Below are positions 1,430-21,784 of a stretch of 21,784 nt of DNA, in pieces (the first letter of the stretch is position 1; every line of letters begins with the position of its first letter). Both the position numbers and the translations under genes were made by a program. Source of the DNA: a virus (Duplodnaviria; Heunggongvirae; Uroviricota; Caudoviricetes); IMG/VR virus record IMGVR_UViG_2541047936_000004; one strand, 5' to 3'. The notes below the pieces were generated by a model, which worked only from the letters and a program-made list of their open reading frames with translations, did no database searches and was not told where the DNA came from.

Positions 1430-1485
1430 TGGGCTTCATATAAATATGCTCGATATGCTATTAATAATATCCACATAAATAAAAC

Positions 1486-1508
1486 AACGGGCGTGTTATA
1501 CGCCCGTT
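1486..1508. terminator. Rho-independent terminator between convergent icd 3' end and iraM
   Basis: Perfect 8-bp stem AACGGGCG/CGCCCGTT with a 7-nt loop; T-rich run on the minus strand immediately after the hairpin (plus-strand aaataaaa at 1478-1485), 24 nt downstream of the icd stop. Confidence 0.6.
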
Positions 1509-1531
1509 TCAATATTTAACACATGGAGAGA

Positions 1532-1696
1532 TTACATGTTTTCGATGATCGCTTCACCAAACTCTGAACATTTCAGCAGCTTAGCGCCTTCCATCAGACG
1601 TTCGAAGTCATAAGTTACGGTCTTGGCATTGATTGCGCCTTCCATACCTTTAACAATCAGGTCAGCCGCTTCAGTCCAACCCATATGGCGCAGCAG
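1532..1696 (-). pseudogene. icdC: Displaced 3' end of isocitrate dehydrogenase (icdC-like attachment-site scar), last ~53 codons plus stop
   Basis: Minus-strand translation [53 protein letters not shown] matches the Icd C-terminus as I recall it; the match ends abruptly upstream (HGFYIL does not match Icd), and there is no start codon or 5' part. Confidence 0.85.
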
Positions 1697-2396: not shown

Positions 2397-3518
2397 TTAG
2401 TCATCAACCGCGACTCCTGCACAATCATGGGCTATTGCCAGCAATTGTTTTTTAATTGCTTTAGCATCTACCGTCATATCTACTGTAGCAAAATGGATCT
2501 TATGTCCCTGAGTGACAACATACTCATTAAGCATATAGCCAACAGCTGGATGAAGTAGAAGACCAGCGGCATTGAGCGAAAGCGGATCCGTCTTGTTCTC
2601 CTGTGTTCTAAGGTAGGTATATAGCTGATAAATATAGCCATTACGTAGTGATTGCTCCCGATGCCAACCCTTTGTCAGAATCGAATTAAATTTGGTATCG
2701 ATAATAATACGCCGCTGGGCAGTCTTGTGTTCCAGAATAATGTCTGACTTCATTGTCGGGAAAATCTCTGCACTACCTGCACTTTGATCGCTCAACGCCC
2801 ATTTCAGCTCTTTCCCTGCAGAGACCTGCCAAGTTGTTTTGGCAAGGTGTACACGATATAAGCCAGCGATACCTTTTTCAAATAGTCTTCTCATCCAGTA
2901 AAGGTTATTTGAGGGCGCAGGTAAAAGATATTGGCCTTGATCTTCGGTCGGCATCAGCAGTTCAAAAGCTAATCGTGCGGCATCGACCATCGGTTTATCT
3001 GCGGCATCATGGCGTCCAAAACGCCACACTGAGGGTAATTCGCGGGGGGCAGGATATCCTCCATTTATCCCCTCACGGCGAAGTGATATTGCCATAAAAT
3101 GGCAATCTGCCGCCAAAGACGGTTTCACTATGATTGAGGCCAGACGTTCTAACGCACAGCGAACATAGCGATTTCGGGGGGTGTTGAGGGTTATGTCTTG
3201 AAAATGGCAGGCAACCTGTCCCCGTTCCAGCAGTTGATGACTGGCAGTATACAGTATGTCAATGCGCCCTCTCACCCGGTTCAGGGCCGCATGACAAGTT
3301 TGGTATCCCATATTTAAATTGCGACGTCGGCGCAGCGTAATCTCATGAAGGAGGATTGTCGCCACCAGGTCGGGGATTTCTGCTGGGTTATCTTCTACTG
3401 CGATCTGATTGCGCCCTAACTGGCGAAACAGATCTGAAGCGTACAGCATCAGCATCCAGATATTTCGCATGGGAATACGTGATGCTGTATGTTGCTCACT
3501 CCCGGTTATTGTCGTCAT
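2397..3518 (-). CDS. mcrC: McrC-family nuclease subunit of a McrBC-type (Type IV) restriction system
   Basis: 373-aa ORF colinear with K-12 McrC: MRNIWMLMLYAS vs VRNIYYMLTYA near the N-terminus, RIIIDTKF vs ILIVDAKYY (PD-D/ExK-type core), YIYQLYTYL vs LYQLMNYL, GLLLHPAV vs GLLIYPHV. Its ATG overlaps the mcrB stop (ATGA). Confidence 0.85.
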   Translation of the reverse strand: MTTITGSEQHTASRIPMRNIWMLMLYASDLFRQLGRNQIAVEDNPAEIPDLVATILLHEITLRRRRNLNMGYQTCHAALNRVRGRIDILYTASHQLLERGQVACHFQDITLNTPRNRYVRCALERLASIIVKPSLAADCHFMAISLRREGINGGYPAPRELPSVWRFGRHDAADKPMVDAARLAFELLMPTEDQGQYLLPAPSNNLYWMRRLFEKGIAGLYRVHLAKTTWQVSAGKELKWALSDQSAGSAEIFPTMKSDIILEHKTAQRRIIIDTKFNSILTKGWHREQSLRNGYIYQLYTYLRTQENKTDPLSLNAAGLLLHPAVGYMLNEYVVTQGHKIHFATVDMTVDAKAIKKQLLAIAHDCAGVAVDD

Positions 3519-5497
3519 TTTGCTAATAACACTTTTCTGGCTTCATCGACTTTATTTGGAGCATCGAACCAATATTCGGCGAGCAAAGGGCAGATCTCTG
3601 TATCAACGACTTGTTCATACCAAGCCTGGGCATCGTTGATTTTTTGGCCGATAGCTGGGGTGACATAGCTGTGACCGATACAAAACTGTGGTCCTAAGGT
3701 AACATCTTTTGCCAGCATATCGTTTAATACCGTCAGTCGAGATTTGATGAATGCTAACATGTCAAAATCAATTGCGTAATTATAATTTACCCAGTTTCTC
3801 CACGCGTCATTAAAAGCTGGCTTTAGATCGATAAACGCGAAACGACGGCGCAGCGCTAGGTCAAGTAGTGCGAGTGAGCGGTCTGCAATATTCATCGTAC
3901 CGATGATATATAGATTCTCAGGAATGTATATTTTTTCATCAGCATTTTTAGGATAGGAAAGAGATAATGCCTCAGTCGGCGTGCGTTTATCTGCTTCCAT
4001 CAACGTGAGTGTTTCACCGAAGATTTGCGCCGGATTGCCACGATTAATCTCTTCAATTATCACCACATATTTCGAGGTAGGATTATTGACTGCAGTTTTG
4101 ATTGCATTTACAAAAGGTCCATCAATTAGCGTCAATTGCCCTTCTTTACCTGGACGCCAGCCTCGAATAAAGTCTTCGTAAGAGAGGTTCGGGTGAAATT
4201 GCACCGCGCTAATACGCTCAGGTGCTTTTTCTCCCATCAAGCAGTACGCCAGACGTCGCGCTAACCAAGTTTTTCCAGTTCCGGGTGGTCCTTGTAATAT
4301 CAGGTTTTTCTTGTCGATCAGGCGCTGAAGTGTGAGTTGGATCTTAGCCTCTTCCAAGAAACAGCCATCCTGCACCAGATGACTGATGTCATAAGGAACG
4401 TGGGTGAGTTTTGGCAACAGCGCACTCTCTTCGACAGTTTCCTCAGTTATCGTCTGGGATTCGTTTTTCTCAAAATTCAGGTATTCATAATTTCCGGACT
4501 CGAGGGACTTTAACTCATCATCATTGCATAGTTTCTGTAGATAAAAGTAGATTGAGCTTGTAACAGTTTTGCTCTCAGGATGCTCTACCTTGAATACGTC
4601 CAAGTAGTTTTCTTCCAACTCCGAAGCAGTGAAATAAGGGCCATTTTTTTTCAGGCATAACGCCTTAATTTTATTCAGTAAAGAGGCTTTCCACGTTCTA
4701 TTTGCCACCTCATCTTTAGACTGGCTAAGATCTGTATTCCACGCTGATAAGGAAAGTTCTGGGAAAGAATGAACCGGATAGTTTGGTTGGGTAAAGACCT
4801 CGTTCAGCGCCCGCATAAGACTCAGGTAACTTTGTCCACTACAGCGACCTTTTGCCCCGTTTTTAATGATCTTAATGTTTAACACTGTCTGAATGTAATA
4901 CTGCGACTGGCTATCTAAAGTGGGGTAGAACCAAGGACGGGTCCAGTACAACCCCATGGTGAGATTCCAACCGACATTCATTACTGTAGAAGCGATGTCA
5001 TATGCGGCAGTGAAGTCTGCAGAGTTAGTATTCTGGTTATCCGCAAAGATCATTGCCTGTGAGAACATTTCCCACAAGCATTCAATGTCATTAGGGTCGC
5101 GTGACTTTTCATAACCAAAGAACCAAGATTTTTGGTTATTCAACAGAGGGATTCCGGCAAAGGAGTCAGGAATCGGTTCGTTCACGCCCAACAAATTCGC
5201 TAGCTTGGCAGCAATAATTTTGCGATTGCTGTCGGTCAAGTTACGATTGAACAAGCCCATAGTAGTAAACGGACAAATGTCTTTTAAGGGAAAGATCTCT
5301 CCCATAATAGATTTGTCCTGCAGATGGGACATTCCTTCCACACCCGAGGCAATTAGATGAATACCTTTGACTAATTCATCTCTACGATTTCGCCAAGTCA
5401 GTAACGCGTTGGCAAAAGCCTCATAAAAACTAGCCCAAGCAAACTTGCCATCATGTTCTGCTGTATCCACGGGAACTCCATTATACTTGTTGAGCAA
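3515..5497 (-). CDS. mcrB: McrB-family GTPase (AAA+) with a long N-terminal region of unknown type
   Basis: 660-aa ORF with a TTG start. Residues ~390-660 align with K-12 McrB: NLILQGPPGTGKTWLARRLAY, VQFHPNLSYEDFIRGWRP, MNIADRSLALLDLALRRRFAFIDL, IGHSY, PLLAEYWFD. The first ~385 residues do not resemble the K-12 McrB N-terminal domain as I recall it. Confidence 0.85.
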   Translation of the reverse strand: MLNKYNGVPVDTAEHDGKFAWASFYEAFANALLTWRNRRDELVKGIHLIASGVEGMSHLQDKSIMGEIFPLKDICPFTTMGLFNRNLTDSNRKIIAAKLANLLGVNEPIPDSFAGIPLLNNQKSWFFGYEKSRDPNDIECLWEMFSQAMIFADNQNTNSADFTAAYDIASTVMNVGWNLTMGLYWTRPWFYPTLDSQSQYYIQTVLNIKIIKNGAKGRCSGQSYLSLMRALNEVFTQPNYPVHSFPELSLSAWNTDLSQSKDEVANRTWKASLLNKIKALCLKKNGPYFTASELEENYLDVFKVEHPESKTVTSSIYFYLQKLCNDDELKSLESGNYEYLNFEKNESQTITEETVEESALLPKLTHVPYDISHLVQDGCFLEEAKIQLTLQRLIDKKNLILQGPPGTGKTWLARRLAYCLMGEKAPERISAVQFHPNLSYEDFIRGWRPGKEGQLTLIDGPFVNAIKTAVNNPTSKYVVIIEEINRGNPAQIFGETLTLMEADKRTPTEALSLSYPKNADEKIYIPENLYIIGTMNIADRSLALLDLALRRRFAFIDLKPAFNDAWRNWVNYNYAIDFDMLAFIKSRLTVLNDMLAKDVTLGPQFCIGHSYVTPAIGQKINDAQAWYEQVVDTEICPLLAEYWFDAPNKVDEARKVLLAK

Positions 5498-6415: not shown

Positions 6416-9264
6416 TATGCAAGCCTCACAATGTAGTTAAATGCGATGTTTTTGACGGTGTTTTCCGCGTTACCAGCAGCGTTAACGGTGATGGTGTGTC
6501 CATGTGAGCCAATCGCAACGGAGTGCGTATGAGCACCAATACCGACAGTATGTGCATGTGCGCCTGCGCTTGCAGCAGTGCCGGACAGCGAGTGGGTATG
6601 AGCACCATCTGATGATGTCTTCCCTGCATTACGAGTCTGGCCACTACCGCTTGTTGTGCTCATAATCCCCGCGCTTAGATTTGAAATCGCGGTATAACCA
6701 TTAGGGAAAATGCTCGTGTTCGTGCCACCAAATGCACCGGAACTCTTGTGTTGGTGCGCACCGGCACTATTTGCGGTCCCGCTAATACTATGGGTATGCG
6801 CCCCGGTGTTATTCGTGGATTTGGTTCCGTAATCAAACGACGATGTGGTTTTCGTCCCCAAATCCGTACTGGATGCGCTGGCGCTGTGGGTGTGCGATTT
6901 AATGCCGTCCTGTTCCTGAGACAATACGGCCCGACCACTGGCAGGTTTGCCCTTAATCGTCCAGCCACGCATATCAGGGATCACGCCTGACGGATAAGCG
7001 GCTGCAAGTTTCGGGTAAGCAGATTTGTCAAAAGTCTGCCCCTGCATCAGGGCATAACCAGACGGAACGGTATCTGATGGCCACGGGATTGGTGCGCCGA
7101 CTGGGTAGCTTTCTGGTGGAAGATTTTTCGAGGTATAAACTTCTGCCCAGCCTTCCTCAAAACCATAACCGTCTCTTGAAGAACGGTAGAACAGACCACC
7201 ATTTCTGTAATGCGCCTTCATCTGCAGGGTCCGGCAACTTCCGACTCCGGTATAGAAGTTAACCAGAATATAGCTGTCGCCAGAGCGGGTGACATTGTAA
7301 GCGCCTGATTCGGCATTCCAGGGAACGCCACCATCCGCATCGGCATATGTATCCGTTGCCCTTCTGGCAAAAGCAGCCACATGCGCGGCGGTTAAAGTAA
7401 TATCTTTGGAACCATCAAATGGAACACCGGATATTTTTCTTGCAGTCTGGAGTTTTGTAGCAGTTGCAGCATTACCAGTGGTGTTCTGATTACCCGTAGT
7501 GTTTACACCTGGAAGGTTAATATTTGCAGAACCGTCGAAAACAACTCCACCGATAGATCTTGCCGTCTGCAATTTCGTGGCTGTACTTGCATTACCATTC
7601 AATGAACCAGTTAATCCACCTGTAACAGACAACGGACCTGAAACTGTTCCTCCGGTTGTTGGCAGTGCTCCAATATCTGATGGTGTAGGTTTCTGATGTG
7701 AGCTATACATCGTATAAACAACACCATAGGTAACGCTGGAAGGCTTACTCGCTGAATATGTTGGCGAGGTATAAACAGAAACTGACGCATTTGCAGTACA
7801 ATCCCAATGGATATTTACACTCGTCGCATAATTGCCAATCTCAACGTAAATATCATATGTATCGCCGGATGTGTTGATCCAGGCGAAATTCGTTAATCCG
7901 ACGGCTGTACGCTTCCACAAAGCCCCGGTAATTCCTTTGGGGTTTCCATTGCCTGCTCGTAGAACCAGTTCTGAAATGCCTGCCTGATGTGGGGAACCGA
8001 CGTTGTAACCAGCGCCACCAATCAATGCGATGTAAACGATGGAACTCGCTTGTGGCATGGTAACCGTAGCCAGTTTGAACCACCCAGCCCCGCCAGAGAA
8101 AGACATCGTTACTGAATTTAAAGTACCAATATCTTTCGGCGTTAATGTTATATCCGCAGTCAGTGCTTTTCCGTTAACTTTTCGGTTAGATGGCACCCTG
8201 CTATTCGCATTGTCATTGGCTGCTTTAACTGCTTTTGGCGTTGCGGCCAGCGATTCACTGGTGCTATCAACAGCACTGCTAAGTTTCACAACACCTTTAG
8301 TTGTAAGGCTTGCGTCTTCCATCGCAACTGCACCGGCAATCTCTTCAGCACGATCAGCAGCAGCTTCCGCACGGGTCGCAGCGGATTCAGCAGTAGTTTT
8401 GCTCTGAGATGCCGCCGTCGCACTGCCAGCTGCCTCTGTCGCCTTCGTGGATGCTGTCGTGGCGCTGCCTTTCGCTGCTGATGCCTGTCTGCTCGCCTCA
8501 TCTTTTGAAGCAGACGCAGATGATGCCGATGACGCCGCCGAACTGGCGGACGATGCAGCTGCCATTTTTGAGGATTCTGCACTGGTTTCCGAGGCTTTCG
8601 CGTTCGTTTCGGATGTCTTCGCTGCGGATGCAGACCTCGCTGCTGCGCTGGCCTGTTCAGCGGCTTCGCCAGCCTTCGTTGTGGCTGTTGAAGCAGACGA
8701 TGCGGCGCTTTCTGCCGATTTTCCGGCGGCGGTGGCACTGGCTGAGGCCTGCCCGGCACTTGTTGACGCGGCACTGGCAGACGACGCAGCCGCTGTTTTT
8801 GAGCCTGCCGCAGCCGAGGCGCTCTGTCCCGCTGCCGTTTCAGAAGACCTGGCGTTTGTCTCAGACGTCTTTGCCGCCTTCGCGGAATTGCCTGCCGCCG
8901 TTGCCGAGGAAGCGGCACTACTGGCGCTTGATGATGCGTTCGTTTCTGATGATTTCGCTGCCTCTTTTGAGGCCGCCGCATCCCGGGCTGAGGTGGCTGC
9001 TTCTGACGCCTTCGTGGTCGCGGCGGATGCAGAAGTGGCTGCTGATTGTTGTGACGCTGCCGCATTCGTTTCTGACGTTTTCGCCGCACCGGCACTGGTA
9101 GCTGCCGCGCTTTTTGAGGACTCTGCAGCAGCACTTTTTGCTGCTTCACGGGCCTTTGTCGATGCCGTTCCTGCGCTGGAAGACGCTGACTGAGCCGACG
9201 ACGCGGCCTGTCCGGCTGACGTGCTGGCGGCACGTGCTGAGCCTGCAGCATCGGTTATTACCAC
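6415..9264 (-). CDS. stf: Side tail fibre protein (lambda Stf-like), N-terminally truncated
   Basis: 949-aa ORF. The Ala/Ser-rich periodic region (KTSETNA repeats), the middle [35 protein letters not shown] block and the His-rich C-terminus (GAHTHS...[31 protein letters not shown]) match lambda Stf. Homology begins at the position corresponding to about residue 145 of lambda Stf, and the upstream sequence is J-derived, so the first ATG is internal. Confidence 0.8.
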
Positions 9265-9282
9265 TTCCCGGATCGCTATACG

Positions 9283-10114
9283 CTATTCCGTTAAAGATAA
9301 TGGGCGGAATAATGATTTGACGGTCAAAGTTATGATCATCGCTGATGGTGACTGTAACCGTCCCGTTTGGTGTTTCCGTATTACCCCACGTACCAGCCTG
9401 TTTCGGGAATGATTTGGATACAGCTTTAACGAAGTCACCTCTGACCTGAGTCGCCTCCAGCATGCCCTTAATCGTACAGTTTTCATTTACCGTGACATTG
9501 TTGAGCGTCCCGGCGTTCGCATTCACACTGCCACTGATATCCGCATTTTTAGCGGTCAGCTTTCCGTCCGGTGTCAGGGAAAATGCCGGTGGATTTCCAC
9601 CGCTGGTAATGGTGGGGGCCGTCAGGCGTTTCAGGAACACGTCGTTCATGAATATCTGATCGCCCTGACCAACAAACATCGGTTTTGTGTTGCCATTCGC
9701 AGGATTAACCATCGCAATCCTGTCCGCCGCCAGCAGCACCTGACTCTGCATGCCGTCAGGGGTGTTCTCAATATCCACGATGGCCTCTTTTTCCGGTACA
9801 TGCTGCACGGCGGTGATGGCATACGTGCCGTCGTCGTTCTCACGGATACTCACGCAGCGGAACAGGCGCTGGCGCAACGTCGGCAGCTTCAGCCCCCATA
9901 CGCTGTATTCAGCAACGCCGTCAGGAACACGGCTCACTTTCACCTTCACGCCGTCGGTGACGGACTGAACCTCCACGCTGACCGGACTCCCCTGCCCGTC
10001 AACCAGGCTTATCAGCGTGGTGCCGGAAGATGGCAGCGTGATTTCACGGTCGAGCGTCAGCGTCCGGGTCTGGCTGTTTACCGCCAGCACGCGCCCGCCG
10101 GTGCGGATACCCAA
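9283..10114 (-). pseudogene. J: Remnant of tail tip/host-specificity protein J (C-terminal portion only)
   Basis: Minus-strand ORF contains lambda J C-terminal blocks ([102 protein letters not shown]). About 850 N-terminal codons are absent; the 3' end runs out of frame into stf. Confidence 0.7.
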
Positions 10115-10332
10115 GCTGGAGTGGCGAACGTTTTACCCTTGCTGATGAGGTATTCACTGATTTCGCTGTACCACATGTGGCTGAGTGCATTCTGGGAAAG
10201 ACTGCGTCTCTCGCGCCACGGTTTAAGCACCATGCGAAAGCATTTGCCGTCCTCCAGATAAGGCTGGATCTGCCGACCGATAGCGGTGAAGTTACCGCGA
10301 TGCAATTTGATACCATCTTGTGGGAGGTTCAC
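10115..10332 (-). pseudogene. N-terminal fragment of a NinB/Orf-like recombination protein, truncated at the junction with the J remnant
   Basis: GTG start with a GGAGGT Shine-Dalgarno sequence. The motif WRERRSLSQNALSHMW resembles the lambda NinB block ERNRSLDQNRKLWACL at a similar distance from the N-terminus. The reading frame then runs into J-derived sequence; the exact junction is unresolved. Confidence 0.3.
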
Positions 10333-10880
10333 GCTTCACCTCCGCAGAGATCAAACGCTGGATGCAAAATATCGCAGGTGCATTTCTGCATCTGTGAATG
10401 GAGAAGAGAGGTTGGATTGTATGTGCGCATAAACGTCCCCGTTTAGCGCAGAAGTCACCGGAGTTGTTCAGGCCCCAATGGCATGATTATGGCTGGTTGA
10501 TTATTGGAAATCAAATGTGCTGAAAATTAGTCTGCCAAGTCTTCCTCAGTCGCAACTGGGTAATTCCAAATATCAAAAAAAGCTATAGCCTCCTGCCATT
10601 TGCTCCATAAGTTATCAAGTACTTGTGTAGGTTCCGTACTTTTAAAAACAGAATCAGCCGCATCACCGTTATGAACTTCCTCGTACAGTTCCATTATTAG
10701 CAGATTAACAAAGTACTGTTTCAACATTAATGCCTGATTACCTTCTTTCTGCTGGCTATCCTGCTTGATGATCTCCATCGCCCGTACTAGGCACCTGATG
10801 ATATCCGCTGCATCATTAACGCTCCATGAACCGCCCCGGGAATCCTGGAGACTAAACTTCCTGAGAAAGAGGTAAACAGG

Positions 10881-11207
10881 ATGACTAAAAATACTCGTTT
10901 TTCCCCCGAAGTCCGTCAACGGGCAGTCCGTATGGTTCTGGAAAGTCAGGATGAATATGACTCACAGTGGGCGGCAATTTGTTCCATTGCCCCAAAGATT
11001 GGCTGTACGCCGGAGACTCTGCGTGTCTGGGTTCGCCAGCATGAGCGGGATACCGGGGGCGGTGATGGTGGGCTCACCAGCGCTGAACGTCAGCGTCTGA
11101 AAGAGCTGGAACGTGAAAATCGTGAACTGCGCCGCAGTAACGATATCCTTCGCCAGGCTTCCGCTTATTTTGCGAAGGCGGAGTTCGACCGCCTCTGGAA
11201 AAAATGA
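10881..11207 (+). CDS. IS629 OrfA (helix-turn-helix transposase N-terminal part)
   Basis: 108-aa ORF inside the IS; ends in an A-rich slippery region overlapping the orfB start. Confidence 0.85.
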
Positions 11208-12094
11208 TGCCACTGCTGGATAAGCTGCGTGAGCAGTACGGGGTCGGACCGGTATGCAGCGAACTGCATATTGCCCCGTCAACGTATTACCATTGTCAGC
11301 AACAGCGACATCATCCGGATAAACGCAGTGCCCGTGCGCAGCACGATGACTGGCTGAAGAGAGAGATACAGCGCGTATACGATGAAAATCATCAGGTGTA
11401 CGGTGTGCGTAAAGTCTGGCGTCAGTTGTTACGGGAAGGAATCAGGGTGGCCAGATGTACAGTGGCGCGCCTCATGGCGGTTATGGGACTTGCCGGTGTT
11501 CTCCGGGGTAAAAAGGTCCGTACGACCATCAGCCGGAAAGCCGTTGCCGCAGGCGACCGCGTAAACCGTCAGTTCGTGGCAGAACGACCTGACCAGCTGT
11601 GGGTGGCTGATTTTACTTACGTCAGCACATGGCGGGGCTTCGTCTATGTGGCGTTCATCATTGATGTGTTTGCCGGATACATCGTGGGGTGGCGGGTCTC
11701 ATCGTCCATGGAAACGACATTCGTGCTGGATGCACTGGAGCAGGCGTTATGGGCCCGTCGACCGTCCGGCACGGTCCATCACAGTGATAAAGGTTCTCAG
11801 TATGTATCGCTGGCCTACACACAGCGGCTTAAGGAAGCCGGATTACTGGCATCAACAGGAAGTACAGGCGACTCGTATGACAACGCGATGGCGGAGAGCA
11901 TCAATGGTCTTTACAAAGCGGAGGTAATACACCGTAAGAGCTGGAAAAACCGTGCAGAAGTGGAACTGGCCACACTCACGTGGGTGGACTGGTATAACAA
12001 TCGACGATTGCTGGAAAGGCTGGGCCATACTCCTCCGGCAGAAGCAGAAAAAGCTTATTATGCTTCCATCGGAAACGATGATCTGGCAGCCTGA
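11204..12094 (+). CDS. IS629 OrfB (DDE transposase catalytic part)
   Basis: 296-aa ORF in the -1 frame relative to orfA with an integrase-core-like sequence (HSDKGSQY...DNAMAES); identical copy at 19058-19948 on the minus strand. Confidence 0.85.
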
Positions 12095-12523
12095 GTTCAC
12101 AGATAAAACACTCTCCAGGAAACCCGGGGCGGTTCACCATTCAGATCCGCGCTTATCTTTAGCTGATGAATTGGCTCTCTCAGCGCAAGCCTTTAAAGAC
12201 TCATAAAGGTAAACTCTATTTTGTAGCTGCAGCGCTTTTTTTGACGTGTACCAACTTGCAAGCGCCGACCCCGCTGCGGCTAATGTGCCAAACGCAGAAA
12301 TACCTGCTGCTATTGCACTTAAGTCGGCACTGTCAAAGTTCCACATCATCGTTACACCTTATATAAATACCCCTCAGTAATATCCAATAAGGTATGTGCA
12401 CAATCAATATAATTTTATCCGTATCGGCACATAGCGATTTGAACGCTACTGGTAATGGTATATTTTAGATTATATCGTCCAGTTTACAGCACCCGTATTT
12501 TATGAAATGGACTCGCATATTAC

Positions 12524-12563
12524 CCAAAAAATGCCAGCACTTCCGTCATCGTAGAATGCTGGC
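12524..12563 (-). terminator. Probable rho-independent terminator downstream of the 99-aa ORF and recombinase
   Basis: Hairpin gccagcac(ttc)...(gaa)tgctggc at 12533-12563 (7-bp perfect stem, extendable to ~10 bp with one bulge), followed on the minus strand by a T6 run (plus-strand aaaaaa at 12525-12530). Confidence 0.45.
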
Positions 12564-12607
12564 AGTATTTCTAACTAGTGACTTTATTGGAACAGATTCT
12601 GACGGAA

Positions 12608-12907
12608 TTATGGTAACACTCGACTCCACTTATCATCCAGCCACGGCTGGAATTTTACATGTGCCGTTTCTCTGGCGAGGATTGCTCGCGCTCTGTTGAG
12701 TATCTGGGGATATTCTTGCTCGATAGAAGTAAAGCGGCCGGCTTCGCGGTGCTCCGCAACCTGAAGTAGTGGAGTAACGTTCTGGCAGGCAGTTAACATC
12801 ACATCACCTGCTCGCCATAACCAAGCACGTGCACAAAGTTTGTTATCAGTGAATTGTTTTGTGATTGGGTATTGTTGAACTGCTAGAACGAGAACGCCAG
12901 CATCCAT
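12608..12907 (-). CDS. Hypothetical 99-aa protein
   Basis: ORF between the recombinase gene and the IS-split gene, with a plausible AGGGA ribosome-binding site; no family recognised. Confidence 0.35.
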   Translation of the reverse strand: MDAGVLVLAVQQYPITKQFTDNKLCARAWLWRAGDVMLTACQNVTPLLQVAEHREAGRFTSIEQEYPQILNRARAILARETAHVKFQPWLDDKWSRVLP

Positions 12908-13018
12908 TGGCAGTCCCTATAGTAAAACCATAGCTCAGGACGCTTCGTTCAGGATAGATAATTTTATTGTACTTACCTAACTTTCTTACTATAGCACGGT
13001 TGAAAAAGTGATTATTAC

Positions 13019-14545
13019 TCAAAAATAAACCTCACCATCAACCATATATTTGAGAGTACTTATCGCCTGCTGGGCGGATATTGTTTTCATTAAAGGATAG
13101 TGTTTAAAAACAATGCCATTCATAAAATAGATATCACAGGTTTTATTATCTGTATTGATTATGATTTTTTCGAATGTTTTATAGGCAAGTGTACGACATA
13201 GCTCTCGCCCATTTTTACTGGTTAAGTCAATAGCATGAAAATCACCAAGTGAACTCACCGCTTTACTCTTCAAAGTTTTTAATGATACAGAAGCCCTTCG
13301 TAATTCCTTATCTAATACTCTGATTTTTTCTGCTATAGCGGTAACTTCAGGCGCAACAGATAATGCAGCAATTAAATTATTAATTTTCATCTGGAGCTCA
13401 ATAATTTTCAACTCTAAAGTTTCATTAGCATCTTTCTTGTTTTCAACTGGTTGGATTTTACTACAATTAAAAAGCAACTCATTAATGATATTATAATCAA
13501 CCAAATCTCTCTTTATTGATGGCCTGTCACATCGATGCAGTCTTCTCATCGGACAAACATAATAGCCATGCAAACTTCCAGATACCGCATGAACAATCAT
13601 GGTATTACCACAAGCCTCGCACTTCATAACTGTTCGAAGTAGATTTATCAACATAGGATTTTTGCTACTATTGCTAATACCAAAAGGTGCCAACCGAATT
13701 TCCTGCACAGCGTAAAACAAATCATCTGATATGACTCTGGGATAATAGCCAGCGATTTCACTTATTCCTTTACCTCTTGCACGATATGAAGGTACGCATA
13801 TACCTATCAGAGCTTTATTCGCTAATAATTTTTCAATTACAGAAGGTCCCCATGCACTTTCTTTTCCTGAGAAATTCTTTACAGCATGATCATTTAAATA
13901 CTTGGCTATTGCATTCAATGAGCGCCTTTCCATCCTGAGTTTAAAAATTAGCTCAATAGTTTTCACCCTGTCGGGGTCTGGAACAAAAGCCGTTCTTTTG
14001 TCATCCAATGAGAGCCATCTCGGACAAGACGCCGTCATAATCGTGCCTGACTCCAGTGCATCCTGCCGTTTTTTCTTCCATGATAATTTAACCCGACTTG
14101 ACTTTATCTCGCTTTCTTCATTTGCCCTTTGTGCTATAAGTATGGCTTTTATTAATGAATATGGCTCATTCAATGAGTCAATATTATAGACTGTATTATC
14201 GCAAAGAGTTATAACATCAATACCGTGATTCAAAATCAATTTCAGACGCTCAATCGCCTCACCGACTTTTTCTCTTGAAAGTCTGTCCAGACTTTCAACT
14301 AACAATGTAGTCCCTGGCAATATATAACCATGTTCTATAGCATCTAAAAATTCCGAAAAAGCTCCTGATTGTGCATGCTTTCCATTGAATGCGCTTAACC
14401 CCAAATCTTCATACGTTACGGTATCAAGGTAATAATCACTATTTACCTTTAGCCATTCAGTAATAAGCCTTCTCTGGCGGTTTAATGAATCACCAGACAT
14501 CTGACTTGGTGATGAAAATCGCATATATGCTATGGCTTTTTTCAT
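13019..14545 (-). CDS. ybcK: Large serine recombinase (YbcK-like)
   Basis: 508-aa ORF with an N-terminal resolvase-type motif (AIAYMRFSSPSQ, catalytic Ser context), a long recombinase domain and a Cys-rich segment (CEACGN...YYVCPMRRLHRC). It lies directly downstream of emrE, as ybcK does in K-12 DLP12, and has the same length as I recall for YbcK. Confidence 0.75.
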   Translation of the reverse strand: MKKAIAYMRFSSPSQMSGDSLNRQRRLITEWLKVNSDYYLDTVTYEDLGLSAFNGKHAQSGAFSEFLDAIEHGYILPGTTLLVESLDRLSREKVGEAIERLKLILNHGIDVITLCDNTVYNIDSLNEPYSLIKAILIAQRANEESEIKSSRVKLSWKKKRQDALESGTIMTASCPRWLSLDDKRTAFVPDPDRVKTIELIFKLRMERRSLNAIAKYLNDHAVKNFSGKESAWGPSVIEKLLANKALIGICVPSYRARGKGISEIAGYYPRVISDDLFYAVQEIRLAPFGISNSSKNPMLINLLRTVMKCEACGNTMIVHAVSGSLHGYYVCPMRRLHRCDRPSIKRDLVDYNIINELLFNCSKIQPVENKKDANETLELKIIELQMKINNLIAALSVAPEVTAIAEKIRVLDKELRRASVSLKTLKSKAVSSLGDFHAIDLTSKNGRELCRTLAYKTFEKIIINTDNKTCDIYFMNGIVFKHYPLMKTISAQQAISTLKYMVDGEVYF

Positions 14546-14800
14546 GGTGACACCTGCTAAAGTATGCTTTTATAAACCTTAGTGGTGAGATATGATTTTT
14601 GTTTAATTTTTATTTAAAAAGACAATTAAGGTCACATTATCTTGAATATACAACAATAATCGTATTGCAATTTTCTTACACCATAATCTTGAAAGCACAA
14701 AAGAATGAATAAAAACTAAAGACATTAACAAAAAGCATAAAACGAGGCCCATATAAATATACGAGCCTCCATATTTTAGTCGTTTAAAAACAAATTATTT

Positions 14801-15133
14801 TTAATGTGGTGTGCTTCGTGACAATAAATTAATAACCAACACACCGGCACAAATCAACATCATGCCTATAATGGCTGGCAGGTCCAACCGTTGGCCGAAA
14901 AATCCCCATGATAGTAAGCTAATCAGGACAATACCGACTCCTGACCAGATAGCATAAGCAATCCCTGTAGGAATATAAGCCAGCGTCTGAGCTAATAACC
15001 AGAATGATGCACAATAACAAATAATTGTACCAACAGATGGCCATAACCGTGTAAAACCTTCTGAAAACTTCATTAAGGTTGTACCAATGACCTCTGCAAG
15101 TATTGCACCACCAAGATAAATATAAGGATTCAT
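14801..15133 (-). CDS. emrE: Small multidrug resistance efflux transporter EmrE
   Basis: 110-aa protein MNPYIYLGGAILAEVIGTTLMKFSEGF...LSRSTPH matches EmrE as I recall it. The track ORF extends 18 codons further upstream; I trimmed to the canonical ATG, which has an AGGA upstream. Confidence 0.9.
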   Translation of the reverse strand: MNPYIYLGGAILAEVIGTTLMKFSEGFTRLWPSVGTIICYCASFWLLAQTLAYIPTGIAYAIWSGVGIVLISLLSWGFFGQRLDLPAIIGMMLICAGVLVINLLSRSTPH

Positions 15134-15200
15134 AGCATATTCTTTCCTGTTCAAACTGGAGAGAATTGTACTACAGTTTGAACTCAACTCACCTGTTTCA

Positions 15201-15503
15201 TCATTGTGTACCCATTGATGTTCTTTTATATACCCTCAATACCCGTTTCATCGCGGCACTCTGGCGACACTCCTTAAAAATCAAATTCGTGCTCACCTTT
15301 CCTTCCCATTCTTCTCTGGTAGCGAACCGATAATACACCGTTCGCCAGACCTTACCATCAACGACTAGGATTCCTGCCCGCGCCATTTTAGCCGCAGCCT
15401 GATTTATGCTGGTTACCGTTGCGCCTGTTACCGCGGCAACGTCCTGCGCACAGAATTTCTTATGAGTCCCCAGGTAATGAATAATTGACTCTTTGCCCGT
15501 CAT
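15201..15503 (-). CDS. ren: Lambda Ren-like protein
   Basis: MTGKESIIHYLGTHKKFCAQDVAAVTGATVTSINQAAAKMARAGILVVDGKVWRTVYYRFATREE matches lambda Ren closely; overlaps the P stop. Confidence 0.85.
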   Translation of the reverse strand: MTGKESIIHYLGTHKKFCAQDVAAVTGATVTSINQAAAKMARAGILVVDGKVWRTVYYRFATREEWEGKVSTNLIFKECRQSAAMKRVLRVYKRTSMGTQ

Positions 15504-16201
15504 ACCCTTGCTCCTTTCAGCCCAAACTTAGCTTTGATTTCTGCGATCTTCGCCAGAGCCTGTGCACGATTTAGAGGTCTACCGCCCATGACAGGAAGTT
15601 GTTTTACTGGTTCAGGTATAGCCTCACCACGGTTAATTCGTGCGGTCATACAGGACAGTTCATCGGCAGCCTTGCGCCGTAATTCCGCGTCAGTCAACGC
15701 ATTGGCCCGCATGTTCTGATACAGGTTGGTAACCAGCCAGTAGTGCGCGTTTGATTTCCACGGATAAGACTCTGCATCCGGATACAGCCCGCGCTTCCGG
15801 CAATACTCGTAAACCATATCAACCAGCTCGCTGGCGTTTGGCAGCCCGGCGGTAACGGATGCTTCTTCCCGGCACCAGGCGACAAACTGCCCGGGTGATG
15901 GCAGGAATGGTCGATTCTGCCGACGGGCTACGCGCATTCCAGCGTTAACCTGTTCCATTGTGGTGATCCCGTTTTCCCGAAAAGCCAGCACCCACTGGCG
16001 GCGGATTTCGTTCAGTTCATTCTGGTCACGGTTAGCCAGGCTCGCCGGGAAAGTTGCCAGTAACTGGCTGAACACACCGTTGATGATCTGCGCTACCTGC
16101 TGTACCTGTGGCTTTTCGTCGTACTGTTCCGGCATGTTGTTGGCGATCCGACGCATCTGCTCACGGTCAAAGTTAACCATCTGTGCGGCGATGTTTTTCA
16201 T
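15500..16201 (-). CDS. P: Replication protein P (lambda P-like, DnaB loader)
   Basis: 233-aa ORF essentially colinear with lambda P (MKNIAAQMVNFDREQMRRIANNMPEQYDEK...AKFGLKGA), with the same length. Confidence 0.9.
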   Translation of the reverse strand: MKNIAAQMVNFDREQMRRIANNMPEQYDEKPQVQQVAQIINGVFSQLLATFPASLANRDQNELNEIRRQWVLAFRENGITTMEQVNAGMRVARRQNRPFLPSPGQFVAWCREEASVTAGLPNASELVDMVYEYCRKRGLYPDAESYPWKSNAHYWLVTNLYQNMRANALTDAELRRKAADELSCMTARINRGEAIPEPVKQLPVMGGRPLNRAQALAKIAEIKAKFGLKGARV

Positions 16202-16440
16202 AGATCCACCCCGTAAATCCAGTCAGTGTTTGTCAGGTCGAGTTTTGGTTTGCCGACTGTCACGCCAGCCTGTTGCTTGTTCCGGTTGATTTCGAGCTGG
16301 GTCCACTTGTCGCGGAGTTTGGCCGGACTCAGCACGTTACCGGACCAGAAGTTGTCCTGGCAGGCCCAGCGGAACAGTACACACATGTCGCGGTGGTTAC
16401 GTCCATCACGTTCACGCATCAGACGGATATCGTTACCGGG
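16198..16440 (-). pseudogene. O: Replication protein O, C-terminal fragment only
   Basis: The minus-strand ORF ends ...[56 protein letters not shown], which is the lambda O C-terminus. The N-terminal origin-binding part is absent; the upstream boundary is the exo junction. Confidence 0.8.
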
Positions 16441-17088
16441 ATCGACGTGAGAGCTGTCGAACAGGGGGATGATGCGTGGCACAAATTACGGCTCGGCGTC
16501 ATCACCGCTTCAGAAGTTCACAACGTGATAGCAAAGCCCCGCTCAGGAAAGAAGTGGCCTGACATGAAAATGTCCTACTTCCACACCCTGCTTGCCGAGG
16601 TTTGCACCGGTGTGGCTCCGGAAGTTAACGCTAAAGCACTGGCCTGGGGAAAACAGTACGAGAACGACGCCAGAACCCTGTTTGAGTTCACTTCCGGCGT
16701 AAATGTTATTGAATCCCCGATCATCTATCGCGACGAAAGTATGCGCACCGCCTGCTCTCCCGATGGTTTATGCAGTGACGGCAATGGCCTTGAACTGAAA
16801 TGCCCGTTTACCTCCCGGGATTTCATGAAGTTCCGGCTCGGTGGTTTCGAGGCCATAAAGTCGGCTTACATGGCCCAGGTGCAGTACAGCATGTGGGTGA
16901 CGCGAAAAGATGCCTGGTACTTTGCCAACTATGACCCGCGTATGAAGCGTGAAGGCCTGCATTATGTCGTGGTTGAGCGGGATGAAAAGTACATGGCGAA
17001 TTTTGACGAGATGGTGCCGGAGTTCATCGAAAAAATGGACGAGGCACTGGCTGAAATTGGTTTTGTATTTGGGGAGCAATGGCGATGA
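16430..17088 (+). pseudogene. exo: Lambda exonuclease (Exo/RedA), lacking its start and first ~10 codons
   Basis: [56 protein letters not shown]...[14 protein letters not shown] is colinear with lambda Exo from about residue 10 to the end. The apparent N-terminal 55 codons of the track ORF are antisense O sequence. Confidence 0.85.
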
Positions 17089-17243
17089 CGCATCCTCACG
17101 ATAATATCCGGGTAGGCGCGATCACTTTCGTCTACTCCATTACAAAGCGAGGCTGGGTATTTCCCGGCCTTTCTGTTATCAGAAATCCACTGAAAGCACA
17201 GCGGCTGGCTGAGAAGATAAATAACAAACAGGAGGATATATGA
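17085..17243 (+). CDS. Possible 52-codon small ORF translationally coupled between exo and the DGQHR gene
   Basis: Its ATG overlaps the exo stop (ATGA), its TGA overlaps the DGQHR ATG (ATGA), there are no internal stops, and GGGGAG lies 8 nt upstream. Product [52 protein letters not shown]. Below the track's length threshold. Confidence 0.3.
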
Positions 17244-18304
17244 GTCAGGTTGGTAATCATTCATTCGAATTTCCGGCATCGCAAGGTGTACAGGGTGGTA
17301 CTGTTACACTCTTCCTTACCATACCAGGAAGATCGCTGGCTCGTTTCCTCGCTTCAGATAATTACGGCCATACACTGGAACGCTCTCAGCGAGAAATTAA
17401 TCCAAATCGAGTACGAAAATTTTTAAATTATCTCACTAACGCAGACTCAAGAAATGAGCCTTTTATCATTCCCCCTCTCGTAGGTAACTGTGATTCGAAT
17501 ATAGAATTTGTACCGTTTGGCAACACAAATGTTGGTATAGCCAGAATTCCCCTCGACGCCGAAATAAAACTTTTTGATGGTCAACATCGTGCAGCTGGCA
17601 TTGAGATATTTTGCCGAAGTTCCCCATCAACGCTCATGGTTCCCATGATGCTTACAATGAATCTGCCGCTAAAAACCCGGCAGCAGTTCTTTTCGGACAT
17701 AAATAACAACGTTTCTAAGCCATCAGCGACCATCAATATGGCGTATAACGGCCGGGATGATATTGCTCAGGGAATGATATCCTTCCTGACCCAACATACT
17801 GTATTTGCCGATATAACCGATTTTGAACACAACGTAGTGCCATTAAAAAGTAATATGTGGGTGAGTTTCAAGGCACTCACTGATGCAACGTCAAAGTTCG
17901 CTAGGAACGGCAATCAACAACTTGAAATGGGATATATAGAATCTGTCTGGGAGGCATGGATTACACTAACTCAGATTGACTCAATCCGACATGGTGTACA
18001 CCACGCTACGTACAAGCGCGATTATATTCAGTTCCATGGAGTAATGATTAACGCTTTCGGTTTTGCGGTTCAACAGATGATGGTTAATCATTCCATCGCA
18101 GAAATAACTTCTATGATCGAAAAACTATGTGCAACTACCAGCTCTGCAGAAAGAGAGGATTTTTTTCTGATGGATAACTGGGCGGGGATCTGCACGAAAG
18201 CCAGCCAGGAAAAACTATCTGTTATTGCCAATGTGGCAGCGCAGAAAGCAGCAGCAAACAGACTGATACAAGCTTTTACCAAAGGAAGTCTGGAAACAAC
18301 TTAA
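17240..18304 (+). CDS. DGQHR-domain protein (DndB-like), solitary
   Basis: 354-aa ORF with a strong ribosome-binding site (CAGGAGGA-N5-ATG). It contains the exact motif FDGQHRAAGIE at residues ~112-122 and a downstream QQFFSDINNN block, consistent with the DGQHR/DndB family as I recall it. No dndACDE-like genes are nearby. Confidence 0.7.
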   Translation: MSQVGNHSFEFPASQGVQGGTVTLFLTIPGRSLARFLASDNYGHTLERSQREINPNRVRKFLNYLTNADSRNEPFIIPPLVGNCDSNIEFVPFGNTNVGIARIPLDAEIKLFDGQHRAAGIEIFCRSSPSTLMVPMMLTMNLPLKTRQQFFSDINNNVSKPSATINMAYNGRDDIAQGMISFLTQHTVFADITDFEHNVVPLKSNMWVSFKALTDATSKFARNGNQQLEMGYIESVWEAWITLTQIDSIRHGVHHATYKRDYIQFHGVMINAFGFAVQQMMVNHSIAEITSMIEKLCATTSSAEREDFFLMDNWAGICTKASQEKLSVIANVAAQKAAANRLIQAFTKGSLETT

Positions 18305-18457
18305 TGAATCAACATTGTCTCATATCAGCATGCTGTACGGCGTCTTTAAGGAACGGTGAGCATGAAAAACAAAATCATCATGGAGCTACAGGCTCCTTTT
18401 TTATTATTCGCATTCACCCTCAAGCGTATTAACCAACAATTCAGGGATTAATGAAAG

Positions 18458-18676
18458 ATGGCAGACATCATTGATTCAGCATCAGAAATTGAAGAATTAC
18501 AGCGCAACACAGCAATAAAAATGCGCCGCCTGAACCACCAGGCTATATCTGCCACTCATTGTTGTGAGTGTGGCGATCCGATAGATGAACGAAGACGCCT
18601 GGCCGTTCAGGGTTGTCGGACTTGTGCAAGTTGCCAGGAGGAGATCGAACTTAAGAACAAACAATGGGGACTGTGA
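18458..18676 (+). CDS. TraR/DksA-family C4 zinc-finger protein
   Basis: 72-aa ORF with CxxC-N17-CxxC (CCECGDPIDERRRLAVQGCRTCASC), typical of phage and plasmid TraR-like proteins. Confidence 0.65.
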   Translation: MADIIDSASEIEELQRNTAIKMRRLNHQAISATHCCECGDPIDERRRLAVQGCRTCASCQEEIELKNKQWGL

Positions 18677-18723
18677 TGGCTTCAAAGCAGCAAATTTCAA
18701 CATCGTCCAACTGAGGTGTAAAA

Positions 18724-18963
18724 ATGTTCAGAATCATTTTTCCTAACACCTGGTACGTCGACCACCACGGCACTCCCTGCAAAATCCTGCGTTCTACCCA
18801 CAACAAAGTTCACTACATCCGAAAAGGCAGAACATGTATCGCCAGCATGTTCCGCTTTAATCATGACTTTGAACCTGTGAATAAAGCTGATGCAGATCGG
18901 ATAGCAGAAGAGATCGAAACGGCAGAACACATTAAGAAGTTACGTGCCATACGCAGGAAATAG
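18724..18963 (+). CDS. Hypothetical 79-aa protein
   Basis: ORF in the same orientation as the early-left operon, ending 52 bp before IS629 copy 2; no family recognised. Confidence 0.35.
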   Translation: MFRIIFPNTWYVDHHGTPCKILRSTHNKVHYIRKGRTCIASMFRFNHDFEPVNKADADRIAEEIETAEHIKKLRAIRRK

Positions 18964-19057
18964 AAAAATTGATAAATTCAATACTGCATTACTCAGCATT
19001 AAATTTATCTCTATGTGAACCGCCCCGGGTTTCCTGGAGAGTGTTTTATCTGTGAAC

Positions 19058-19948
19058 TCAGGCTGCCAGATCATCGTTTCCGATGGAAGCATAATAAGCT
19101 TTTTCTGCTTCTGCCGGAGGAGTATGGCCCAGCCTTTCCAGCAATCGTCGATTGTTATACCAGTCCACCCACGTGAGTGTGGCCAGTTCCACTTCTGCAC
19201 GGTTTTTCCAGCTCTTACGGTGTATTACCTCCGCTTTGTAAAGACCATTGATGCTCTCCGCCATCGCGTTGTCATACGAGTCGCCTGTACTTCCTGTTGA
19301 TGCCAGTAATCCGGCTTCCTTAAGCCGCTGTGTGTAGGCCAGCGATACATACTGAGAACCTTTATCACTGTGATGGACCGTGCCGGACGGTCGACGGGCC
19401 CATAACGCCTGCTCCAGTGCATCCAGCACGAATGTCGTTTCCATGGACGATGAGACCCGCCACCCCACGATGTATCCGGCAAACACATCAATGATGAACG
19501 CCACATAGACGAAGCCCCGCCATGTGCTGACGTAAGTAAAATCAGCCACCCACAGCTGGTCAGGTCGTTCTGCCACGAACTGACGGTTTACGCGGTCGCC
19601 TGCGGCAACGGCTTTCCGGCTGATGGTCGTACGGACCTTTTTACCCCGGAGAACACCGGCAAGTCCCATAACCGCCATGAGGCGCGCCACTGTACATCTG
19701 GCCACCCTGATTCCTTCCCGTAACAACTGACGCCAGACTTTACGCACACCGTACACCTGATGATTTTCATCGTATACGCGCTGTATCTCTCTCTTCAGCC
19801 AGTCATCGTGCTGCGCACGGGCACTGCGTTTATCCGGATGATGTCGCTGTTGCTGACAATGGTAATACGTTGACGGGGCAATATGCAGTTCGCTGCATAC
19901 CGGTCCGACCCCGTACTGCTCACGCAGCTTATCCAGCAGTGGCATCAT
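19058..19948 (-). CDS. IS629 OrfB transposase (copy 2)
   Basis: Protein identical to 11204-12094. Confidence 0.85.
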
Positions 19949-20271
19949 TTTTTCCAGAGGCGGTCGAACTCCGCCTTCGCAAAATAAGCGGAAGCCTGGC
20001 GAAGGATATCGTTACTGCGGCGCAGTTCACGATTTTCACGTTCCAGCTCTTTCAGACGCTGACGTTCAGCGCTGGTGAGCCCACCATCACCGCCCCCGGT
20101 ATCCCGCTCATGCTGGCGAACCCAGACACGCAGAGTCTCCGGCGTACAGCCAATCTTTGGGGCAATGGAACAAATTGCCGCCCACTGTGAGTCATATTCA
20201 TCCTGACTTTCCAGAACCATACGGACTGCCCGTTGACGGACTTCGGGGGAAAAACGAGTATTTTTAGTCAT
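19945..20271 (-). CDS. IS629 OrfA (copy 2)
   Basis: Protein identical to 10881-11207. Confidence 0.85.
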
Positions 20272-20415
20272 CCTGTTTACCTCTTTCTCAGGAAGTTTAG
20301 TCTCCAGGATTCCCGGGGCGGTTCACTGACCAGTCAAGAGATGTACCTGCCATGAGCTTAATATCATGTCAGATATATCGGTCACAAACTCCCTCAGCAG
20401 CTAAGAGGAGGACAA

Positions 20416-20652
20416 ATGTCTCGACTAATCACTTTACAGGACTGGGCTAAAGAAGAATTTGGGGACTTAGCACCAAGTGAGCGAGTTCTGAAAAAATACG
20501 CGCAAGGGAAAATGATGGCCCCACCCGCTATAAAAGTTGGTCGCTACTGGATGATTGACCGAAATTCCCGTTTTGTAGGAACGCTTGCAGAACCGCAACT
20601 CCCAATAAACGCAAACCCAAAACTCCAACGGATAATCGCTGATGGCTGCTAG
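20416..20652 (+). CDS. xis: Excisionase (Xis-like)
   Basis: 78-aa ORF immediately upstream of and overlapping int, with a strong ribosome-binding site (AAGAGGAGGA); the LITLQDW...PPAIKVGRYW pattern resembles the lambda Xis family (LTLQEW...PPPVKDGREY). Confidence 0.7.
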   Translation: MSRLITLQDWAKEEFGDLAPSERVLKKYAQGKMMAPPAIKVGRYWMIDRNSRFVGTLAEPQLPINANPKLQRIIADGC

Positions 20653-21784
20653 ACCCCGATCTCACAAAATCTCTATACCCAATTTATATTGCAAATTAGA
20701 TAAGCGAACCGGAAAGGTATATTGGCAATACAAACATCCACTATCCGGTCGTTTTCATAGCTTAGGAACTGATGAGAATGAAGCAAAACAAGTTGCTACT
20801 GAAGCAAATACCATTATTGCTGAACAACGTGCCAGACAAATATTAAGCGTCAATGAGCGTCTGGAAAGAATGAAAGGCAGGCGCTCAGACATTACGGTGA
20901 CAGAATGGCTTGATAAATATATTTCTATCCAGGAGGACAGGCTGCAACATAATGAACTAAGACCCAACTCCTATCGGCAAAAAGGCAAACCCATTCGTCT
21001 TTTCCGTGAGCATTGTGGAATGCAACACCTCAAGGATATTACCGCACTTGATATTGCCGAAATAATTGATGCTGTAAAGGCTGAAGGTCATAACAGGATG
21101 GCGCAAGTCGTGAGAATGGTGTTGATCGACGTCTTCAAAGAAGCACAACACGCAGGACATGTTCCGCCAGGATTTAACCCTGCGCAGGCAACAAAACAAC
21201 CGCGAAATCGAGTAAACCGCCAAAGATTGTCACTGCTCGAATGGCAGGCAATATTTGAAAGCGTAAGCAGACGGCAGCCCTATTTAAAATGCGGCATGCT
21301 ACTTGCTCTTGTTACTGGACAACGTTTAGGCGATATCTGCAATTTGAAATTCTCTGATATATGGGACGACATGTTGCACATTACTCAGGAAAAAACCGGT
21401 TCAAAACTTGCTATTCCGCTTAACCTGAAATGCGATGCTCTGAATATTACCCTTCGTGAAGTTATATCTCAGTGCAGGGATGCTGTTGTTAGTAAATATC
21501 TGGTCCATTACCGTCACACTACCTCTCAAGCAAACAGAGGAGACCAGGTTTCTGCAAATACTCTGACAACGGCTTTTAAAAAGGCCCGGGAAAAATGTGG
21601 CATAAAATGGGAGCAAGGAACTGCGCCCACATTTCATGAGCAGCGATCTCTCTCAGAACGGTTATATCGGGAACAGGGTCTGGATACGCAAAAGTTGTTA
21701 GGCCATAAATCCAGAAAAATGACCGACCGATACAATGATGATCGTGGTAAAGACTGGATTATCGTAGATATCAAAACAGCATAG
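20642..21784 (+). CDS. int: Tyrosine integrase, lambda Int family
   Basis: 380-aa ORF colinear with lambda Int: RPRSH..PNLY near the N-terminus, LALVTGQRLGDICNLKFSDI vs LAVVTGQRVGDLCEMKWSDI, PTFHEQRSLSERLY vs PTFHELRSLSARLY, LLGHKS...RYNDDRG vs LLGHKS...QYRDDRG (catalytic Tyr context). The stop is the last codon of the window. Confidence 0.9.
   Translation: MAARPRSHKISIPNLYCKLDKRTGKVYWQYKHPLSGRFHSLGTDENEAKQVATEANTIIAEQRARQILSVNERLERMKGRRSDITVTEWLDKYISIQEDRLQHNELRPNSYRQKGKPIRLFREHCGMQHLKDITALDIAEIIDAVKAEGHNRMAQVVRMVLIDVFKEAQHAGHVPPGFNPAQATKQPRNRVNRQRLSLLEWQAIFESVSRRQPYLKCGMLLALVTGQRLGDICNLKFSDIWDDMLHITQEKTGSKLAIPLNLKCDALNITLREVISQCRDAVVSKYLVHYRHTTSQANRGDQVSANTLTTAFKKAREKCGIKWEQGTAPTFHEQRSLSERLYREQGLDTQKLLGHKSRKMTDRYNDDRGKDWIIVDIKTA

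Follow-up and report, generated by a model that had tools for sequence, protein, structure and literature searches.

Insertion sequence IS629, which includes the near-identical IS1203, belongs to the IS3 family and is present in multiple copies in Escherichia coli O157:H7 and Shigella; copies with a nucleotide identity of at least 95% are counted as isoforms in ISfinder. In the IS3 family, one end of the element attacks the DNA flanking its opposite end, resulting in a figure-eight structure and then a circle, in which a few (about three) bases of donor flank lie between the joined ends, and integration of this circle nicks only the 3′ ends and thus leaves short 5′ flaps of donor DNA (PMC7780238; bioRxiv 10.1101/2023.06.07.543989). 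Target site duplications of IS629 have been surveyed in E. coli O157:H7, where they were identical at 21 of 47 sites, while the flanks were not identical at the remaining 26 (Rump et al. 2011, PMC3271280). Since only these 21 sites showed identical duplications, non-identical flanks are common for IS629.

The window, i.e., the whole stretch of 21,784 nucleotides that was analyzed here, carries two inverted copies of such an element (Table 1). Copy 2, on which the current study is focused, is inserted between the DUF4222 gene and xis, into a spacer of 139 bp, with IRR as its left and IRL as its right end. It shares with IS629 the length of 1,310 bp, the TGAACCGCCCCGGG ends, the −1 frameshift between orfA and orfB, and the ALIL pseudoknot. 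Both terminal inverted repeats start with TGAACCGCCCCGGG, which is followed by either AAT or TTT and then by CCTGGAGA; imperfect terminal repeats of about 25 bp starting with 5′-TG are, together with the length, characters of IS629, as is a direct duplication of 3 bp (in some cases 4 bp) of the target. The assignment to the IS3 family is based on the overlap of orfA and orfB in the −1 frame in combination with a frameshift-stimulating structure, namely, the pseudoknot located between the two genes, and OrfB scored 313 bits with the NCBIfam model for IS3 family transposases. Copies annotated as IS629 in Stx phages are 98.0 to 98.1% identical to copy 2 over all 1,310 bp. Judged from these characters, the element is an intact IS629 isoform with about 2% divergence from the copies of O157, from which it also differs in one mismatched base in the duplication of copy 2. 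An identical copy in NZ_CP148385.1 has been annotated by PGAP as IS3 family transposase, with a programmed frameshift noted. Copy 2 represents an ordinary, previously annotated kind of IS629-type insertion. Rereading confirmed its coordinates, orientation, identity, and flanks as described in an earlier note on this DNA, as well as the distance of 90 bp (positions 20326-20415) between the end of the IS and xis.

Table 1. Features at and around the two IS629-type insertions (positions refer to the window)
Feature	Position	Strand	Description
Copy 1 duplication CCA	10824-10826 and 12137-12139		Clean, perfect
IS629 isoform, copy 1	10827-12136	+	Exact reverse complement of copy 2, 100% identical
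Truncated replication gene O	16198-16434	−	Directly abuts exo
exo	16429-17088	+	Adjoins truncated O
DUF4222 gene	18724-18963	+	Last upstream gene; stop codon 52 bp left of the IS
Palindrome	18971-19009		AT-rich, 16 pairs; ends 6 bp left of the insertion point
Left copy of target duplication, ATG	19013-19015	+	Equals the uninterrupted target
IS629 isoform, copy 2	19016-20325	−	1,310 bp, intact; ends TGAACCGCCCCGGG...CCCGGGGCGGTTCA
Copy 2 orfB	19058-19948	−	296 aa; Pfam HTH_21 and rve (DDE integrase core)
ALIL pseudoknot (Rfam RF01497)	19874-19990	−	121.5 bits versus gathering score of 50
Copy 2 orfA	19945-20271	−	108 aa; Pfam HTH_Tnp_1
Right copy of target duplication, CTG	20326-20328	+	Base 20326, touching IRL, is C; target has A
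xis (excisionase)	20416-20652	+	Pfam Exc; ATG at 20416
int (lambda-type tyrosine integrase)	20642-21784	+	Pfam Arm-DNA-bind_1 and Phage_integrase

Copy 2 is flanked by ATG on the left and CTG on the right side, and the window accordingly reads ...CTCTATG-IS-CTGACCAG... (in a longer form, ...TTATCTCTATG-IS-CTGACCAGTCAAG...). The unbroken site of IS-free relatives was directly read in three strains, i.e., FORC 064, O157:H7 NE92, and LF82, and has the sequence ...CTCTATGACCAG... (longer form, ...TTATCTCTATGACCAGTCAAG...). Two test queries for the unbroken site matched 1,619 and 1,612 of 5,426 complete E. coli genomes, with a match counted at 80% or more of the query, and the IS-free matches to positions 18300-21784 in many complete genomes cover 2,172 bp, which corresponds to 3,485 − 1,310 − 3. 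The net gain in length at the copy 2 site is exactly 1,310 + 3 bp. In comparison with IS-free FORC 064, the left flank of the window is identical over 2,913 bp, and the right flank contains one difference (position 20831) in 1,456 bp. The flanks of copy 2 are native neighbors, because they are contiguous in the IS-free relatives and the gain amounts to exactly 1,310 + 3 bp. Three extra bases are thus present relative to the unbroken site, as in a regular 3-bp duplication, but its two copies read ATG and CTG. The best explanation of the locus as a whole, to which we assign a probability of about 90%, is therefore that copy 2 is a simple insertion without any loss of adjacent DNA and with an imperfect 3-bp duplication. 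The comparison with related prophages had already been proposed in the earlier note, with the proviso that contiguous flanks and a misread 3-bp duplication might come to light. The flanks are indeed contiguous with a gain of 3 bp, which in substance is the outcome named in the note as refuting its view, but nothing had been misread, and the duplication is truly imperfect.

The C at position 20326 is real, because identical junctions are present in GCA_000461215.1 and NZ_CP148385.1. The window originates from the former assembly, whose scaffold KE702336.1 shows 100% identity to it over the 19,651 bp compared and contains the same ATG and CTG junctions. The latter is the independently sequenced complete genome of strain Z1323HEC0011, the only complete E. 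coli genome with the IS at the copy 2 site, and it shares both junctions including the C. Natural variation of the target, with C already present before the insertion, was considered as well and rejected: the variant of the unbroken site with C had no exact match in the 5,426 complete E. coli genomes, and the base in question is A in all three directly read lineages (FORC 064, NE92, and LF82).

Copy 1, which forms a perfect 1,310-bp repeat with copy 2 that is far above chance, is located 6,879 bp away, measured between the IS ends of the two copies; the repeat finder reported arms of 1,311 nucleotides, as one flanking base matches fortuitously. It interrupts the gene of a 169-aa hypothetical protein (window positions 10527-12349), whose N-terminal fragment of 71 aa stops at a TGA made by the tip of the element. 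The same gene is intact in NZ_CP148385.1 (locus L002, positions 13541-14050), which lacks copy 1 and reads ...CGCTCCATTCAG... with a single CCA at this site, while only one base differs from the window in the 9,648 bp compared (positions 12137-21784). The copy 1 site is also unbroken in many other genomes, where the matches cover 1,988 bp (3,301 − 1,310 − 3). The two copies are hence separate insertions into an already contiguous prophage. Copy 2 is probably older than copy 1 by parsimony, because the independent strain has the same copy 2 junctions without copy 1. The short contigs L009 to L012 from other samples encode the same truncated protein, which indicates that copy 1 is also present outside the source genome. 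The prophage of Z1323HEC0011 furthermore lacks window segments 6542-9255 and 9850-10103, both from the tail-fiber region, and these gaps represent deletion polymorphisms in otherwise identical prophages.

The non-identity of ATG and CTG had been taken in the earlier note as a sign of an adjacent deletion or rearrangement, i.e., of an IS-mediated event that took one flank of copy 2 after a normal insertion. This explanation has precedents, e.g., the low number of identical duplications in O157:H7 (21/47; PMC3271280) and the IS629 copies L004 and L006 of related prophages, which lack a duplication and adjoin real rearrangements. Such an event would however be recognizable by flanks that are not neighbors in IS-free relatives, whereas both flanks of copy 2 are contiguous in the latter with just three extra bases in the window, and they match the IS-free relative over the entire 2,913 bp on the left and, bar one base, over the 1,456 bp on the right. 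The proposed deletion is thereby refuted, and we consider this scenario extremely unlikely. Homologous recombination, in the form of an inversion involving copies 1 and 2 or of a flank swap with a third IS629 copy, would be conceivable given two perfect 1,310-bp inverted repeats at a distance of 6.9 kb and the frequent IS-IS exchange among E. coli prophages. It is nevertheless very unlikely, as copy 1 retains CCA on either side, so that no inversion between the copies, by which each would have traded one flank, has taken place, as NZ_CP148385.1 carries the copy 2 junctions even without copy 1, and as a flank swap would have imported foreign sequence instead of a single base, while native neighbors are present on both sides of copy 2. 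A joint arrival of the two IS copies with the intervening 6.9 kb as a composite transposon might be suggested by the inverted IS pair that encloses emrE, a serine recombinase, and other genes. This idea can practically be dismissed in view of the differing outer flanks, the 3-bp duplication that each copy has of its own, the location of the intervening segment at the same place in IS-free prophages, and the presence of copy 2 plus cargo without copy 1 in NZ_CP148385.1; neither an outer duplication nor a joint presence and absence of the two copies was thus observed. The earlier note had reached the same view of inversion and composite insertion from the flanks, the outer ones of which differ. 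Its suggestion that the two copies are substrates for an inversion holds true in principle, since the perfect inverted copies could recombine and thereby invert positions 12137-19015, but there is no sign that this has occurred here: the gene order is the same as in the window in both assemblies with copy 2, and the short contigs are not capable of revealing inverted isomers.

In the orientation of the IS, the insertion reads CAG-IRL...IRR-CAT, and the mismatch resides in the base that touches IRL. The formally simplest explanation would be a perfect ATG/ATG duplication that was changed later by an unrelated point mutation from A to C at position 20326, and every genome known with the insertion already has the C, so that the ancestral state is not observed. 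A later random mutation is nonetheless unlikely because the window and the flanks of IS-free FORC 064 differ at merely one of the 4,369 bases compared, which corresponds to an expectation of about 0.0014 random substitutions in the six bases of the duplication. In addition, an intermediate with ATG on both sides of the IS was found neither in complete E. coli genomes nor in metagenome contigs, species-representative genomes, or viral contigs. We therefore infer that the mismatch arose during the insertion and not afterwards. The likeliest source of the C would then be a base of the donor site, with an error of gap repair as the alternative. With low probability, the single base may instead have been acquired by co-conversion from a third, CTG-flanked copy; under this explanation, the CAG/CTG-flanked copy expected is the same as under the donor model.

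Our tentative proposal for the donor-site origin, which we regard as possible rather than probable, is that the C beside IRL stems from the 3-bp spacer of the circle junction, which was retained as a 5′ flap CAG-IRL and ligated untrimmed. As a member of the IS3 family, IS629 moves by copy-out/paste-in via a circular intermediate, and the ATG target was cut at the usual stagger of 3 bp. The flap 5′-CAG-IRL would then pair with the first two target bases, one of which is the base to be ligated, so that a mispair would form only beside the IS. If this flap were ligated instead of trimmed, the daughter chromosome derived from that strand would read CAG-IRL...IRR-CAT. The alternative step, a misincorporation during the filling of the 3-nucleotide gap, would lead to the same sequence. 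A CAG flank in the required orientation was not present at the 15 other insertion sites sampled, no CAG-flanked donor copy was detected among 10 further loci that encode an identical OrfB, and nothing relevant on imperfect duplications of IS3-family elements was found in the literature searched.

The rarity of this arrangement became apparent from 16 distinct insertion sites of the isoform group that were read. Eleven of them, i.e., copy 1 and 10 other sampled sites, have perfect 3-bp duplications and four have none, at least two of which (L004 and L006) adjoin real rearrangements; a match at two of the three duplication bases is confined to copy 2 (n = 16 sites). The 26 O157:H7 sites of Rump et al. 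2011 (PMC3271280) likewise represent IS629 insertions with non-identical flanks, but the cause at copy 2 is not a rearrangement, as its flanks are native and two of three bases match. A two-of-three match with native neighboring flanks is the less common case.

Searches of species-representative genomes and viral contigs for the copy 2 junction returned nothing, and metagenomes yielded a single hit, contig L013 (ENA ORCM01015465.1, positions 1-2230), which originates from a gut metagenome, has a low coverage of about 3x, and contains the same junction of the IS with CTGACCAG. Its IS diverges by about 2.5% from the copy in the window and resembles the isoform of CFT073, and an istB gene of the IS21 type flanks it on the left. 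The right flank of 85 bp contains five differences, one of which is the variant of LF82, whereas the other four are present in no complete E. coli genome and in none of the other collections searched. Contig L013 may therefore be an assembly path through a repeat, or a chimera, with read errors at the contig end. It could also represent a second independent insertion at the same position and with the same C; if so, a chance donor base would become less likely, and a deterministic cause would be needed.

The prophage into which the IS was inserted is a degraded lambdoid prophage at icd with an integration of the phage 21/e14 type and an internal deletion like that of DLP12. In related records, icd is located about 110 bp past int, and the far attachment site is marked by a duplicate of the icd 3′ end at window positions 1479-1695, with an identity of 92.6%; an integrase beside icd and a diverged icd duplicate at the far end are exactly the characters of a phage 21/e14-type integration. 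Neither N nor cI nor cro is present between the truncated gene O and exo, and no repressor, cro, N, or pL region is left in the prophage. The whole immunity region (pL, N, cI, and cro) is thus deleted. Gene O is followed on the minus strand by P, ren, emrE, and a ybcK-type serine recombinase gene. DLP12 of E. coli K-12, which is located at argU, has the layout int-xis-exo′-P′-ren-emrE-ybcK. The order of truncated replication gene/exo, P, ren, emrE, and ybcK-type recombinase is the same in both prophages, both lack immunity and pL, and the junction of O and exo is much like exoD-peaD in DLP12. Unlike DLP12, the prophage studied here resides at icd with a phage 21/e14-type integrase, and its segment from exo to xis contains additional DGQHR, TraR, and DUF4222 genes.

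Several further properties of these prophages were observed. A restriction system consisting of the McrC gene and the gene of a 660-aa McrB-like AAA ATPase (window positions 2397-5497) is located at the prophage end far from int, beside a tail fiber assembly gene. Positions 17240-18304 encode a 354-aa protein of the DGQHR/DndB family among remnants of early-left genes, and this gene may be related to defense. As a further deletion polymorphism, FORC 064 lacks the equivalent of positions 6544-16102, so that the remainder of a tail gene is fused to a fragment of P. O157:H7 NE92 (locus L007, positions 1-60) has an internal deletion in which everything from O to DUF4222 is gone, and the palindrome upstream of xis directly adjoins, with its left edge, the truncated replication gene to which it is fused.

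The transposase genes of copy 2 are antisense to DUF4222, xis, and int, and the insertion had been expected in the earlier note to cut xis and int off from early-left read-through transcription. The genes upstream are indeed on the same strand as xis and int, but the pL/N/immunity region from which such transcription would have come is gone. A pL operon, i.e., pL together with N and a repressor region preceding exo in the same direction, is absent, and a crude scan found no promoter-like site upstream of exo. Moreover, a terminator-like hairpin is already present at positions 18382-18396 after the DGQHR gene, and no promoter-like site is split by the IS. A crude consensus scan revealed no promoter-like site in the unbroken DUF4222-xis spacer, for which reason a promoter split by copy 2 was rejected as a candidate effect, and none that faces outward from IRL toward xis. 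Any remaining read-through would be blocked by copy 2, although nothing indicates that it was of importance in this prophage. The palindrome to the left of the IS has a predicted RNA folding energy of −8.4 kcal/mol (z = −2.3) and is followed by a T-rich run on the minus strand.

Insertions of the same IS group have also hit this prophage region in AR_0369 and CFT073, where the transposase is antisense to xis-int as in copy 2. The IS of AR_0369 is located 17 bp upstream of the copy 2 site and has a perfect GCA duplication, whereas that of CFT073 is located inside xis with a perfect GAT duplication (both in window orientation). A third insertion is found in the phage 21-type int record AF017626, whose IS belongs to the same group and is 98.4% identical. 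All three differ in position from copy 2 and are separate events. Copy 2 and the insertions of AR_0369 and CFT073 amount to three events among about 1,600 genomes with the locus, which are too few for a hotspot. The insertion of AR_0369 falls within the right arm of the palindrome at 18971-19009. Insertion targeted to sequences resembling the IS ends has been described for IS911, and the right flank of copy 2 with TGACC resembles the IS tip TGAACC; in CFT073, the IS is followed by GAT-TGACCG. This candidate was dropped, as the best resemblance to the IS tip in the vicinity of the target did not exceed that in shuffled sequence (12 sites).

Rereading of the locus changes the picture of this prophage insofar as the surroundings of xis-int are native, no DNA was lost beside the IS, and the two IS copies are separate and recent. 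The imperfection of one base in the duplication is the sole point of wider interest, and it would caution against reading every non-identical flank of an IS as a rearrangement. If the carry-over of a donor base were true, the paste-in step could import flanking bases, and imperfect duplications would be natural footprints that record the donor copy of an IS3-family element.
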